Below, piece by piece: positions 1 through 4,368 of a DNA stretch of 64,000 bases. Made by a program: the position numbers and the translations under genes. Position 1 is the first letter of the stretch, and each line of letters opens with the position of its first letter. The stretch lies in contig CBDEUM010000009.1 of assembly GCA_965242925.1 (NCBI GenBank), positions 1-64,000 on the forward strand, in the 5' to 3' direction. The notes under the pieces are model-generated. The model ran no database searches. It was not told the DNA's origin and saw only the letters and a program-made list of their open reading frames with translations. This DNA is from Roseibacillus sp. GTDB lineage: Bacteria; Verrucomicrobiota; Verrucomicrobiia; Verrucomicrobiales; Akkermansiaceae.

Positions 1-258
1 CCTTCCAGATCATCGGAGCGGAGCTGGTTGACGTCAGCGCCGAAACCTATCGCCTAGGCGTCTGGCAGTGGAATGAGGGGCAGGATGACAACGCTGGTTC
101 AACCGTCGCCTTCGCCGCAGGTGGCGGTGGCGGGATGTTCCAGCAGAATCTCAATGGAACGCTTGGTGCCGGTGCCATTTCAATCGGCCACGATGTTTCG
201 GGCGGGCAGGTGCACTCTGCAGCCGCAGGGGGCCGCGACTACCACATCGACGTGGTGG
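1..258 (+). repeat. Intragenic direct repeat, copy 1 (truncated by window edge); copy 2 at ~1018-1275
   Basis: gaaacctatcgcctaggcgtctggcagtggaatga at 42 matches gaaacttatcgcctgggcctctggcagtggaatga at 1059 (offset 1017 nt, in frame). Similarity continues to GGRDYHIDV. Confidence 0.9.
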
Positions 259-2054
259 CCACCCGTGTTGTGACCGCCGACGGAGACGGCGACGGGTTGC
301 CGGATTCGTGGGAAACCCGCAACAACCTCGATCCAAACGACAATGGCGAAGATCCGAATAACAACGGTGTTGCGGGCGATCCAGACCAAGGCGCTGACGG
401 CGATCCGGACAACGACGGCCTGACGAATCTGGAGGAACTCAACCTCCACACCGATCCGCAAGAGGGCGATACCGACATGGATGGGCTCCTCGACGGGGTT
501 GAATCCAATACCGGGACCTGGAACGGCGCCGATGACACCGGCACCGATCCGAATAATGCCGACAGCGATGACGACGGGCTCAGCGACGGTGTCGAGAACC
601 CGGACTTGGCCCACAATCGCCTGGACCCGAGCCAGCAACCGGGCACCGACCCCAACCTCGCGGATACCGACGGCGACGGCAAGGATGACAGCGTAGAACT
701 CGCAGACGGGACGGACCCCACCAACACGAATGACCTGCTCGTGCCCACGGGTGTCCTCATCGGCGAAGGCGCGGAGCGTCCATTCACGGGAGGAACTCCC
801 GACGGCTGGTCCGGAGTCGGCGTGCTTGAGACCGCCATCATCGACGATTCGACTCTTCCCGGCGCGGGGGACCTTGTCGAGATACTCGAGGTGTCAATGT
901 TTGCCGGGGCTGGTCGCGCTGCCGGATCACACCACTTCATGCCTCTCCTCGTCGACTCCTCGAACCAGATCGCCTGGATCGGTCCGGAGCTGACCCCGAT
1001 GCAGGATGGCCACAATGTCTTTCCCATTACCGGAGCGGACCCGATTGACGTCAGCACCGAAACTTATCGCCTGGGCCTCTGGCAGTGGAATGATGGGCAG
1101 GATGACAACGCTGGTGGAACCATCGCCTTCGCCGGAGGTGGCGGCGGTGGGATGTTTTACCAGAATCTCAATGGAACGCTTGGTGCCGATGCCATCTCAA
1201 TTGGCCACGATGTTGCGGGCGGGCAGCAGCACGCTTCAGGAGCAGGGGGCCGCGACTACCATATCGATGTCTTGGTGGGTCTTTCCGAGCCCAACGTGAT
1301 CATCCTCACCGACGTCTCTTCCGATCCTGGGGCCGGAACCATCAGCTTGAGCTGGGAAAGCAAGGCCGGAGAGCTCTACAATCTGCGCAGCGAGGCCGAT
1401 CCCGCACAGATCGCAGGGGTGGCTCCCCTCGACTGGCCCATCTTCGGCGGCAACGTCGACATCGCAGCCACTCCGCCAGAGAACACCCTGACCATTCCCA
1501 TGCCCGATGACCTGACGCGGCTGTTTGTGGTTGAAGGTTTTCCGGCCCCGCCCGTGACCCTCTTCACGGATGACCTTGAGTCGGGAGCCGAGGGCTGGAC
1601 CACCGTCGTGAACGATGCCATCGGAAGCACCCGGTGGGAACTCGGATCACCCTCCGGTTCCACCGGACCCCTCGCCGGCGCCGATGACTCCGCCACTGCG
1701 TGGTCCACCAATCTCGGCGACTACGGTCCGAACTCCGACATTTCCCTGCGGTCCCCCGCCTTCGACCTGAGCGGTGTGGCCAGCGCGGAATTAACCTTCA
1801 AGGCCTTCCGCGATGCCGACGGATTTGGCGACTCCGCGGTGGTGCGCTTCCTGCGTGCTGCCGACTTCGTGCAACTGGGCGGGGAAACGGCCCTCGACAT
1901 GACAGAATTTGATGTCGGCTACACCACCCTTGAGGTTCCCGTCCCGGCGGAGGCCCTGGGCGAGAATGTGATCATCGAATGGAATTTCGTGAGCGACGGC
2001 AGCGCGGATGACTTCAGCGGACTGACCATTGACGATATCGAGGTGATCGAATAG
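1..2054 (+). CDS. Large extracellular repeat protein, 5'-truncated: duplicated beta-rich module, TSP3-like Ca-binding DxDGDG repeats, C-terminal MAM-like domain
   Basis: Frame 3 is open from the window edge (FQIIGAELVDVSAETYRLGVWQW...) into ORF 135..2054. It has many DGDGDG/DxDxDGLxD motifs, and the C-terminal LFTDDLESGAEGW...LRSPAFDLS...IDDIEV resembles MAM/adhesin-type domains. Confidence 0.75.
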   Translation, partial: FQIIGAELVDVSAETYRLGVWQWNEGQDDNAGSTVAFAAGGGGGMFQQNLNGTLGAGAISIGHDVSGGQVHSAAAGGRDYHIDVVATRVVTADGDGDGLPDSWETRNNLDPNDNGEDPNNNGVAGDPDQGADGDPDNDGLTNLEELNLHTDPQEGDTDMDGLLDGVESNTGTWNGADDTGTDPNNADSDDDGLSDGVENPDLAHNRLDPSQQPGTDPNLADTDGDGKDDSVELADGTDPTNTNDLLVPTGVLIGEGAERPFTGGTPDGWSGVGVLETAIIDDSTLPGAGDLVEILEVSMFAGAGRAAGSHHFMPLLVDSSNQIAWIGPELTPMQDGHNVFPITGADPIDVSTETYRLGLWQWNDGQDDNAGGTIAFAGGGGGGMFYQNLNGTLGADAISIGHDVAGGQQHASGAGGRDYHIDVLVGLSEPNVIILTDVSSDPGAGTISLSWESKAGELYNLRSEADPAQIAGVAPLDWPIFGGNVDIAATPPENTLTIPMPDDLTRLFVVEGFPAPPVTLFTDDLESGAEGWTTVVNDAIGSTRWELGSPSGSTGPLAGADDSATAWSTNLGDYGPNSDISLRSPAFDLSGVASAELTFKAFRDADGFGDSAVVRFLRAADFVQLGGETALDMTEFDVGYTTLEVPVPAEALGENVIIEWNFVSDGSADDFSGLTIDDIEVIE

Positions 2055-2169: not shown

Positions 2170-3440
2170 ATGAAAGCGCTCCTCGGCACCCTCTTTTGTC
2201 TGTCCCTTTTCCCGGCCCCCGGATTTGCCGAAATCTCCAAGAGCCAATTCGAACAGCTGACCGAATTATGCACCCCGGAGAAGAAATCCTCCGGTTGGCT
2301 GGACCTCAACTGGGAAATCGATCTCTGGAAAGCACGTCAACGCGCCGCCAAAGAAGGCAAGCCCATCTTCCTGTGGGAAATGGATGGGCATCCCCTCGGG
2401 TGCACCTGAAACAACGGGGTGGCGGACCGTGAGTTCGTATTCGGCCGGACTGATGTCCAGAAGCTGTTGCGGGAAAACTTCGTGGTGGTTGCTGCCGACG
2501 ATTGGTACCAGCGGCGCCAGAACGATGCCGCAGGAAGGTTTTTCCGCTCCGTGGCTGACCAAGGCCCCCGCAAAGGAGCGGGGGGGGCAACGCGACAGGG
2601 TCGCTACACTTTCAGCGCCTCTGGAAAGTTGTTGGGATTCAACAACAATCGAGATCCCCGACGAATGATATCAATGCTGCAGGACAGCCTGCGCAAGTTC
2701 CGGGCCCTCCCGCCCACCGAGCGCACACCTGGTGCCGTGCAGGTTCCACCCCTGCCCTTCAGTGCACGCGACCAGCGCTACACCCGGGCTCTCCCCAAGG
2801 ACATCATCCCTGTCAAGGTCCATGCCCGTGTCCTGACGGAAAACGGCCAGGGTGAATACGCCGCTTGCGGACAACCGGGGACCAACACCGAAACCTACCG
2901 GCACAGTGGCTTCGGAGTTGCCACTGATCACCTCTGGATCAAGAAAGTGGAACTCGGAGCAGTTGAGCAAGGCTCGCCCGGGAAAAGCCCGGACAGAAAG
3001 TGTCCGATTTACTCGCCATGCGTATTGCCCGCTTCCACCTCGTGGACAATACCCGTGGTGAACCACCCCACTGGCGCAGGGACGAAGTCCGCAAACTCGA
3101 ATGCAGGACCAGCCCGATGACAACTGCCTCCGGGGCTCCTTACAGGAATGCCTTCCGCATCGCAGGAAAATTCCACCTGGAGACCAAGGATGGCAAGCGA
3201 GGCTACCAGGGTGAAATCGACGGTTACATGCGCACTCATGTCAATACCGGGGAGTTCGATCTCCACCTAGTCGCCCTCGGTGATCACTGGGGCGAAGGCC
3301 CATACACGCGGGGTGCTCGTTCCGGTAAAAATCCTCTGGCAATTGTCTTCACCGCCGCGGACCGCAGCATAATCCAAAATCAAATCCCCCCCCAGGCTGC
3401 CCGTTGGGAACAGGGCTACTTCGAGGCTCATCGGCACTAG
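2170..3440 (+). CDS. Putative exported thioredoxin-like selenoprotein (CxU motif, in-frame TGA at 2407-2409) with a probable sequencing frameshift near 2955-2966
   Basis: ORFs 2170..2409 and 2419..3120 are in one frame, separated only by TGA-AAC-AAC-GGG, giving WEMDGHPLGCT-U-NNGVADREFVF...VQKLLRENFVVV. There is an N-terminal signal peptide, a hairpin right after the TGA, and a protein-like continuation in frame 3 (3000..3440). Confidence 0.7.
2410..2435 (+). promoter_or_regulatory. Candidate bacterial SECIS hairpin
   Basis: AAC-a-ACGG-gg-T [GGCGG loop] A-CCGT-ga-GTT can pair directly 3' of the in-frame UGA, with a G-rich apical loop. Folded by eye only. Confidence 0.45.
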
Positions 3441-3615
3441 TTCGCATGCAACTTCGCGTGGTGACGGATTCGTCTTCTTCAACAAATGCGGGGTCAAGCT
3501 GCCAGAGATCGAATACGACGCCCACCCATGGAAGAGAGGTCACAAACTCTTTCTGATTGCACCGCGCCCTGAGAATGCGGAACGTGCCCGGTAGAACCTT
3601 ATCTTGCCCAGTCCC

Positions 3616-4368
3616 ATGAAGAGATTCCTTGCCCTTGCATTCATCTGCGCCCTCCCGCTCACCTCCCCCGCCGACACCAAGTCAGGCGAACAGAAGGAGA
3701 AGGTGGACGCCCCGTGGCCCAGTCACTACTCCAAGGGACGCAAGACTTTCGATGGAACCGGCAAGCATTACATGGGCCGGGAGATTTCCTACGTGATGGG
3801 CCACCAGGCCATCCGCTGGCTGGAGCGTGCCAACCGCGAGGAAGAGGAAGCGCCCAGCAAGGCGATCGCAGCCCTCAACCTGAAGCCCACTGACGTCATC
3901 GCCGACATCGGGGCCGGCTCCGGCTACTACACCTTCCGCCTCGCTCCCCTCGTGCCCAAGGGCAGGGTGATCGCGGTTGATATCCAGCCCGAAATGATCA
4001 CCTTCCTTGAGACAAAGGAAAAGAAACTGGGACTGACCAACGTGGAAGCCCACCTCGGGGAGATCGATGACACCAGGCTCAAACCCAACTCGATCAATGC
4101 CGCCCTCATGGTCGATGCCTACCACGAATTCTCCCACCCGCGGGAGATGATGGAGTCCCTCTTCAAGGCCCTCAAGCCGGGCGGTCGCATCATCCTGCTG
4201 GAATACCGCGCCGAGGATCCCACCGTTCCGATCAAGCCGCTCCACAAAATGACTGAGGCACAGTCACGCAAGGAGATGGAAGTCGTCGGATTGAAGTGGA
4301 AGAGCACGGACTCCAAGCTGCTTCCCTGGCAGCACTTGATGATCTTCGAGAAACCGCCGAAGAAGTAA
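3616..4368 (+). CDS. Class I SAM-dependent methyltransferase with N-terminal signal peptide
   Basis: VIADIGAGSGYY motif I, VIAVDIQPEM, VDAYHEF, LKPGGR. N-terminus MKRFLALAFICALPLTSPA. Confidence 0.85.
   Translation: MKRFLALAFICALPLTSPADTKSGEQKEKVDAPWPSHYSKGRKTFDGTGKHYMGREISYVMGHQAIRWLERANREEEEAPSKAIAALNLKPTDVIADIGAGSGYYTFRLAPLVPKGRVIAVDIQPEMITFLETKEKKLGLTNVEAHLGEIDDTRLKPNSINAALMVDAYHEFSHPREMMESLFKALKPGGRIILLEYRAEDPTVPIKPLHKMTEAQSRKEMEVVGLKWKSTDSKLLPWQHLMIFEKPPKK

Follow-up and report, generated by a model that had tools for sequence, protein, structure and literature searches.

A conserved in-frame UGA in a Roseibacillus gene and its probable reading as one exported thioredoxin-fold selenoprotein

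When an open reading frame (ORF) ends at a TGA two codons past a cysteine, and the same frame then reads on as protein, is that TGA a stop or a codon for selenocysteine (Sec)? The question is raised by positions 2170 to 3440 of a 64,000-nucleotide stretch of DNA from Roseibacillus sp. (contig CBDEUM010000009.1, assembly GCA_965242925.1), here called the window, in which an earlier sequence-only reading had proposed an exported, unannotated, thioredoxin-like selenoprotein with a C-x-U motif. That core proposal is supported by the comparisons described below. There is good reason for confidence that 2170-3440 represents one exported selenoprotein of about 422 residues, encoded by a gene that is intact in nature, and not several short hypothetical proteins; its export is predicted from an N-terminus that resembles a signal peptide. 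The parts of the gene are as follows.

2170..3440, + strand: whole selenoprotein gene, 1271 nt as assembled, delimited from ORFs and from the closest intact relative, L011
2170..2229, + strand: predicted signal peptide, MKALLGTLFCLSLFPAPGFA, judged from the sequence by eye
2281..2724, + strand: thioredoxin-fold domain, residues ~38-185, from an AlphaFold2 (AF2) model and VIA-align; Thioredoxin_7 / DsbD-gamma / AGR / UAS subclass
2401..2403, + strand: codon TGC of Cys78, probable resolving partner of Sec in C-x-U
2407..2409, + strand: UGA read as selenocysteine, residue 80, from conservation of the TGA column and from Cys homologues
2422..2438, + strand: mini-hairpin of the selenocysteine insertion sequence (SECIS) type, from an RNAalifold consensus and pair counts
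2725..3437, + strand: C-terminal beta-rich domain, residues ~186-422, from alignment A4 and the AF2 model
2957..2972, + strand: two single extra bases, at about 2959 and 2971, from alignment to intact loci and from public contigs

The ATG at 2170 starts a 79-codon ORF (2170..2409) whose C-terminal end, KPIFLWEMDGHPLGCT, is followed by the TGA at 2407-2409; the closing WEMDGHPLGCT and the continuation of the frame beyond the TGA are both as first described. Past the TGA the frame of 2170 reads on as NNGVADREFVFGRTDVQKLLRENFVVV and, with TGA taken as U, stays open to 3117, the next in-frame stop being the TGA at 3118-3120. The C-terminal third of the protein lies in another frame, in the ORF 3000..3440, which includes FHLVDNTRGEPPHW, HWGEGPYTRGARSG and PPQAARWEQGYFEAHRH. 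Without the two extra bases the gene measures 1269 nt, or 422 codons and a TAG, equal in length to L011 (422 aa); downstream of the TGA the two are 92% identical. The family length fits the roughly 420 residues proposed for the read-through protein, although no single open frame spans them in the window assembly. A hydrophobic N-terminus is found in every full-length relative aligned.

The evidence that carries the selenocysteine reading comes from these relatives. One genome per GTDB species was taken, yielding 468 candidate stretches and 436 confirmed relatives, from which the best 80 loci were kept. An in-frame TGA stands at the Sec column in 80/80 of them, upstream of the called gene and within near-invariant flanks (KPI[FYL]LWEMDGHPLGC[TV]-U-NNGV). 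The TGA is likewise invariant in alignment A2, an ungapped set of 82 sequences (80 distinct rows) in which column 1 is window position 2401, and the residues immediately beside it are the best conserved of the whole protein in alignment A3. Cys78 is near-invariant in A3, and its codon is TGY in 82/82 rows of A2. Among 41 related genomes, all 27 matches that span the column at E<=1e-20 hold exactly one TGA. The carriers comprise Verrucomicrobiota (Roseibacillus, Akkermansiaceae and the isolate Oceaniferula spumae NT6N, locus L052), Planctomycetota (Gemmataceae, Pirellulales, Kuenenia and Phycisphaeraceae), one metagenome-assembled genome (MAG) of Omnitrophota and three MAGs labelled otherwise; in one Planctomycetota MAG (L035), tandem paralogues at L035:1479 and L035:2924 both have the TGA and GCTUNNG. 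Several of the related genomes (G009, G040, G017, G037, G030 and G039) also hold more distant paralogues, matched at E 1e-20 to 1e-61 and containing a single in-frame TGA apiece, and the nine matches in each of G009 and G040 suggest an expanded superfamily of Sec proteins.

How such a gene is treated in the databases can be seen from the proteins that match it. The read-through protein, used as query, matched 310 proteins at E<=0.001, and the best 120 of these are nearly all 300-342 aa long and consist of the post-TGA part only. Eight of ten database proteins inspected start a few residues past the Sec column, at differing residues, with called starts such as MADREF, MFVFG, MFGHKE and MTDRLL. 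The expectation that gene callers would split the gene is borne out, in that database members of the family almost all begin just past the TGA. A profile search of a library of 1.84 billion representatives gave 3298 clusters (50% identity) at E<=0.001, of which 438 remain at E<=1e-30; among the best 150 of the 3298, 31 span the Sec column and 119 do not, most of the latter starting just past it. The stop-free full-length forms show what can replace the TGA codon. P0027 has Cys at the column (...WEMDGHPLGCT-C-NHGV), and P0046 (425 aa) reads through it with GVT-N. Together with P0027, the 31 spanning representatives have Cys at the column in 12/32 cases and N, A, G, S, E, D, Y, T, P, K or R in the other 20, with Trp never found; at this column the weaker pairwise alignments are possibly off by one residue. 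A comparison of 11 Cys forms with 20 non-Cys forms over 52 conserved positions gave no clean class-specific separation. The homologue comparison that had been proposed as a check accordingly found TGA kept in all 80 loci, conservation on both sides of it and Cys homologues, and no homologue had TAA or TAG at the site.

A different stop-free paralogue, present in the window's own genome (G000:C29:85515-85805) and as ORFs of ~267-272 aa in almost every genome of the genus, aligns with no more than the first ~111 profile positions, at E 1e-6 to 1e-8; it is probably a separate Thioredoxin_7-like protein.

A conserved RNA element lies downstream of the UGA. RNAalifold applied to A2 gave one helix, joining columns 22-27 with 33-38, which in the window corresponds to a stem of 2422-2427 and 2433-2438 closed by the loop 2428-2432 (CGUGA), with an invariant G at 2429; a seventh pair, 2421:2439 (columns 21:39), is present in many relatives and not in the window. 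Over seven pairs and 80 rows, 93.8% of the 560 cells are paired, against 80.8 +/- 1.0% in shuffled alignments (0/500 as high), and both-side changes occupy 72 cells against 24.8 expected, while in a control that slid the 3' side by 1-3 columns pairing was only 38-51%. Pair 23:37 changes from CG to UA in 16 rows, 24:36 from GC to CG, UG or AU in 30 rows, and 26:34 from AU to GC in 21 rows; these covarying pairs switch along with the encoded peptide (ADREFV, ADRLLV, VGRELT, AGRALA). The sequence-only reading had placed a hairpin at 2410-2435, and this placement failed. The pairing 2414-2417 with 2427-2430 (ACGG/CCGU around a 9-nt G-rich loop) is 80.9% paired both in the alignment and in shuffles (500/500 as high) and has 0 compensatory changes; the hairpin at 2422-2438 is the conserved one and replaces it.

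The geometry of this hairpin can be compared with that of the Escherichia coli element. According to PMC8659212, the latter has an upper stem-loop of 17 nt (nt 15-31) at a distance of 11 nt from the UGA, in which U17 bulges out, G23 and U24 are loop bases, and U17 and G23 make contact with SelB. With the U of the UGA counted as nt 1, the family hairpin occupies nt 15/16-32/33, beginning 11-12 nt past the UGA, and has G at nt 23 of the loop in 82/82 rows and U at nt 24 in 47/80 distinct rows. Likenesses to recoding of the E. coli fdhF type are a UGA and hairpin within the coding sequence, the matching position, the loop G23, the common U24, and the presence of selB, selC and selD in the window's genome. 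Unlike that system, the stem here is short (6-7 bp) and in the window's clade contains G-U pairs, and RNAalifold gave no conserved lower stem.

The window's genome (4.58 Mb in 42 contigs, 89.87% complete) encodes most of the machinery that would act on such an element. A tRNA-Sec was found by aragorn on contig C30, SelB scores 287.5 bits against a curated cut-off of 242.25, and SelD scores 366.6 bits (C14:573853-574776). The SelD gene itself has an in-frame TGA, in the context ...SSCAG-U-ASK, which makes SelD a selenoprotein; UxxK is the Sec site given for SelD in Table 1 of PMC13188914. SelA lies above cut-off in 18/19 other genomes of the genus and in 25/41 related genomes. Among 13 other related genomes with a full-length, one-TGA copy (E<=1e-140), SelA is present in 12, the exception being 70% complete, and 14 other genomes that lack SelA have no TGA-containing relative; as kin are not independent, this co-occurrence is to be taken as support rather than as a statistic.

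The place of the UGA within the protein is also informative. An AF2 model of the L011 protein (422 aa, from a 21-row alignment) has a mean predicted local distance difference test score (pLDDT) of 84.1 and a predicted template modelling score (pTM) of 0.85. In this model residues ~38-185 are predicted to form a thioredoxin fold, with its beta-alpha-beta plus beta-beta-alpha core. The closest structure found by VIA-align, over residues 38-181, is 3f9u, a DsbD-like C-terminal domain (Z 13.6, root-mean-square deviation 2.2, 109 residues aligned), and further neighbors are AGR3 (3ph9, Z 12.4), DsbH (2ju5, Z 10.4), 3ira (Z 10.4) and the UAS domains 2dlx (Z 10.0) and 2ec4 (Z 9.5). Foldseek agrees weakly on the thioredoxin fold, with no match of the whole model to the PDB at E<=0.001. 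Pfam Thioredoxin_7 (PF13899) scores 17.4-19.1 bits, below its gathering threshold of 27, and 12/21 members match it at E<=1 (best E 5.3e-4). The Thioredoxin_7 / DsbD-gamma / DsbH / AGR2-3 / UAS subclass, which supplies the best structural neighbors of residues 38-185, shares with the family the signatures W..A...A..egKPi.l and ...v..ll.e.Fv.v..D; its members, in contrast, carry CxxC or CxxS or lack a redox motif altogether, and there is no selenoprotein among them.

Within the modelled fold, a strand (66-71), a loop (72-80) and a helix (81-90) follow one another, and U80 ends the loop directly ahead of the helix, where the redox motif of a thioredoxin fold belongs, as the sequence-only reading had placed it. 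A sequence profile search of the PDB found 3ira alone (E 0.69, a weak match), and in that weak alignment U80 falls at the first Cys of C-H-W-C and Gly83 at the position of the second. On the model, Sec80 appears to hold the attacking (first) Cys position of a classical CxxC. As Cys78, two residues upstream, is the only nearby thiol, the two residues may be expected to form a selenenylsulfide.

Two other ways of decoding the same codon have to be weighed against Sec insertion, and both fare poorly. UGA-2407 might be decoded as Trp, Cys or Arg by readthrough or near-cognate insertion, with the hairpin serving as a readthrough stimulator, and reassignment of UGA to Trp has been reported in some Verrucomicrobiota (PMC13462651). 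Yet TGA is the terminal stop of the same gene in ~29/80 loci, and TGA is therefore not globally reassigned in these organisms; the stop-free relatives have Cys and never Trp at the column, TGA forms co-occur with SelA, the hairpin has the geometry of the SelB type, and SelD of the same genome has TGA at a known Sec site, so that decoding as another amino acid is very unlikely. The TGA might instead be an ordinary stop, with a 79-aa secreted peptide followed by a separate ~340-aa protein from the GTG at 2419, 10 nt downstream. Gene callers do handle all members in this manner, as reflected in the 119 of 150 listed representatives that do not span the column. Such a downstream protein, however, would start in the middle of the thioredoxin fold, past strand 1 and the active-site loop and with no signal peptide, from a start codon that is not conserved among relatives. 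The residues right beside the TGA are the best conserved of the protein, and the stop-free Cys forms read straight through; two separate genes are accordingly the least probable arrangement of all.

A further alternative concerns the window copy only: the family would truly be one of selenoproteins, with this copy a recent pseudogene in which both insertions, near 2959 and 2971, are real, leaving a truncated 316-residue Sec protein or no useful product. Both extra bases are present in the window as given, and the frame of 2170 consequently stops at 3118-3120. Alignment to L011, L012 and L013, which are the nearest intact loci, shows a single extra base in the window after ~2958 and another after ~2970. 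The break was checked over 2170-3440 on Logan contigs from four public runs, X1, X2, X6 and X15, belonging to four studies. Every contig that crosses the site (two variants from X1, and those of X6 and X15) is two bases shorter than the window; those of X6 and X15 are without bases 2959 and 2971. In X1, the run that covers the region best (0.86 of words), a total depth of 11.2 divides into two strain variants of 5.91 and 5.3, one without 2959 and 2971 and the other without 2957 and 2966. No contig of X2 bridges the site. Because no site-crossing contig from X1, X6 or X15 reproduces the window version of 2957-2972, the frame break is most likely a consensus artefact of merged strains in a strain-variable patch, and the natural gene intact. 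Compensating-looking indels 12 nt apart in such a patch are, moreover, typical of consensus errors, and the sequence past the break stays 100% in frame with intact relatives and highly similar to them (P0002, 91% identity), all of which makes a pseudogene improbable, if less so than either alternative decoding. The contigs of all four runs, it may be added, cover 2407-2409 and leave the TGA unchanged.

Set against the preferred reading, of an intact gene for an exported selenoprotein, are several observations that count to its disadvantage. The window copy is frameshifted as assembled, and if the shift were real that copy would be dead. SelA was not found in the window's 89.87%-complete genome by PF03841 or TIGR00474, so that the expected machinery was recovered there as selB, selC and selD, and selA in the congeners; because 18 of those 19 have it, SelA probably lies in the unassembled part of the genome. 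The window's own hairpin has two G-U pairs in its stem and differs from the minimum-free-energy fold, and the window RNA folded by itself gives no better result than shuffles (z -0.70; z 0.02), whereas in L052, L059 and L046 the conserved hairpin is the minimum-free-energy fold. The evidence for the putative SECIS element is comparative, not thermodynamic. The family also departs from the E. coli element in having no bulged U17, nt 17 being paired (column 23 with 37). An RNA-library contig spans 2353-2499 and keeps the TGA, such a contig being no proof of transcription. The family is patchy, with 0/200 evenly drawn genomes of the phylum matching at E<=1e-30; its C-terminal domain has no informative structural match (best VIA-align Z 6.2, to 1uyo, with generic beta-barrels only); and the flanking genes are heterogeneous, with no recurrent partner in 90 ORFs scanned. 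Sec insertion and function alike, finally, are deduced here from comparison.

If the preferred reading is right, SelB carrying Sec-tRNA(Sec) would recognize the hairpin (6-7 bp stem, 5-nt loop, invariant G at nt 23) that lies 11-12 nt downstream of UGA-2407, and selenocysteine would go in at residue 80. The recoding mechanism is in this sense the ordinary bacterial one. Sec-dependent export (here in the sense of the secretory pathway) and cleavage of the signal peptide would then give a two-domain mature protein, in which the N-domain presents Sec80 at the attacking position of a thioredoxin fold, with Cys78 of C-[TV]-U as its likely selenenylsulfide partner, and the tightly packed, beta-rich C-domain would hold a substrate. 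The product might act as a periplasmic thiol/selenol oxidoreductase, or as a redox-reactive binding module for the kind of ligand that the fused relatives described next would recognize.

The C-terminal domain offers the more distinctive clues to function. Modelled alone (residues ~186-422, 64 sequences), it is predicted by AF2 at pLDDT 90.5 as a long, curved sheet of antiparallel strands accompanied by two helices, and it carries the motifs FHLVDNTRGEPPxW, HWGEGxYTRGARPG and PPQ. No Pfam family was found for it in 21 members, and Foldseek of the domain alone against the PDB gave as its best match 8xjc (E 0.064, prob 0.14), an absence of fold match that does not show the fold to be new. Among 17 longer relatives scanned, in which the whole two-domain module is C-terminal, 7 carry FecR (P0180, P0197, P0199, P0218, P0226, P0242, P0257), 5 Pkinase (P0125, P0127, P0139, P0169, P0234) and 2 the regions of an extracytoplasmic function (ECF) sigma factor (P0217, P0224, with regions 2 and 4), with nothing found in the other 3. 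The module in these fused relatives covers profile positions from ~16-34 to ~400-412. At the Sec column some fused copies have Cys (P0127, P0169, P0257), and most have the non-redox residues D, Y, G, S, P, A or T.

The module is in this respect like a sensor domain of FecR anti-sigma factors and Hanks-type Ser/Thr kinases, standing whole at the C-terminus of such proteins, where it presumably forms the extracytoplasmic end of transmembrane signalling proteins. The fused copies differ from the window protein in having no Sec, while the window protein is free-standing with its own signal peptide. The presence of the module on anti-sigma factors and kinases suggests that it recognizes a redox signal or a ligand outside the cytoplasm. 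For the free Sec protein, the somewhat favored role is that of an exported selenol/thiol oxidoreductase whose substrate the C-domain would bind; a part in sensing or relay is possible but distinctly less probable.

Whether the family is already known was addressed by comparison with described selenoproteins. NCBIfam release 20.0 gave no family above cut-off for two read-through proteins (L011 and L052), the best match being NF041383 (VPGUxxT) at 12.2 bits against 275 for the L052 protein, with no match for the L011 protein, and Pfam gave only the sub-threshold Thioredoxin_7 in 21 members. An inventory of May 2026 (PMC13188914) lists 119 prokaryotic selenoprotein families in its Table 1, among them four CxU entries: rhodanese form 3, UshA-like, ferredoxin-thioredoxin reductase and Trx-like Sec.1 (PF13192). 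None of the NCBIfam and Pfam models cited in the inventory, these four included, matched the family, in a comparison that left out entries with only cd or PTHR identifiers. The bacterial thioredoxin (Trx)-fold selenoproteins of the same inventory (Sec-Trx, thiol:disulfide interchange protein, DsbA/DsbG-like, NF041199 (Trx7/PDZ), NF041383 and Trx-like Sec.1) resemble the family in having a Trx fold whose redox motif contains Sec, in export and in Sec/Cys homologue pairs. Unlike them, the family has the motif C-[TV]-U-N-N-G, with the partner Cys upstream and not UxxC or CxxU, and adds a C-terminal domain of ~235 residues; its GC[TV]U also sets it apart from VPGUxxT.

A resemblance to eukaryotic selenoprotein N (SELENON, SEPN1) had also been suggested, including a possible likeness in the helix and strand that follow the motif. 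The motif of SELENON is spelled S-C-U-G, and a regular-expression search for C-U-G-[ST] over the six-frame translation of the window's genome returned out-of-frame noise only, with nothing gene-like. SELENON has a lumenal thioredoxin-like domain with a Cys close to Sec, described in PMC8148124 as a 'CU' domain, and the family is like it in combining an extracytoplasmic thioredoxin-like domain with a Cys near Sec. It is unlike SELENON in that one residue separates Cys from Sec (C-[TV]-U-N-N-G, 80/80 loci) in place of a C-U dipeptide, and in that Sec lies near the N-terminus and is followed by a beta domain, with no membrane anchor seen and no EF-hand in Pfam scans. No description of the family was found in the full-text literature, the supplements of prediction papers lying outside that search; in PMC4807772, S9 Table gives planctomycete candidates by IMG number and generic name, a form in which membership of the family cannot be told. 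Judged by these model and literature comparisons, the selenoprotein family is apparently uncatalogued.

Several consequences follow if these readings are correct. As a tentative broader view, this may be a new and abundant selenoprotein family of aquatic Verrucomicrobiota and Planctomycetota, with an unusual C-x-U centre joined to a beta domain of a not yet solved fold, in which the free Sec protein is the redox-active form of a sensor module; if so, the family would link selenium chemistry to redox sensing or signalling in the envelope rather than to housekeeping disulfide exchange, and the anti-sigma and kinase sensors would be a lead to what the module recognizes. A Trx fold seldom carries C-x-U with Sec in the place of the first Cys. 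All database members seen are truncated 'hypothetical proteins' whose sequences begin inside the thioredoxin fold, and with 436 confirmed stretches the genomes of hundreds of species would therefore be mis-annotated; if the family is missing from the inventory, the selenoproteome sizes of marine Verrucomicrobia and Planctomycetes are underestimated. Oceaniferula spumae NT6N is a cultured carrier with a complete genome, which makes the prediction directly testable.

The genes around the family were surveyed from 90 ORFs hand-picked out of the 133 longest flanking ORFs, one per side, at loci L019-L090. Downstream of the gene in the window, a SAM (S-adenosylmethionine)-dependent methyltransferase with a signal-peptide-like N-terminus (3604-4368, +) is syntenic in 9/80 loci, all of close kin. 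In a Phycisphaeraceae MAG, the neighboring gene (L060:2278-2934, -) encodes a DUF3179 protein, a family that is among the selenoprotein families of the 2026 inventory (PMC13188914). Upstream in the window, a large 5'-open ORF at 3-2054 (+) is rich in Asp, Gly and Asn, with bacterial thrombospondin type 3 (TSP3) repeats and an internal duplication of ~300 aa, and probably encodes a secreted calcium-binding surface protein.

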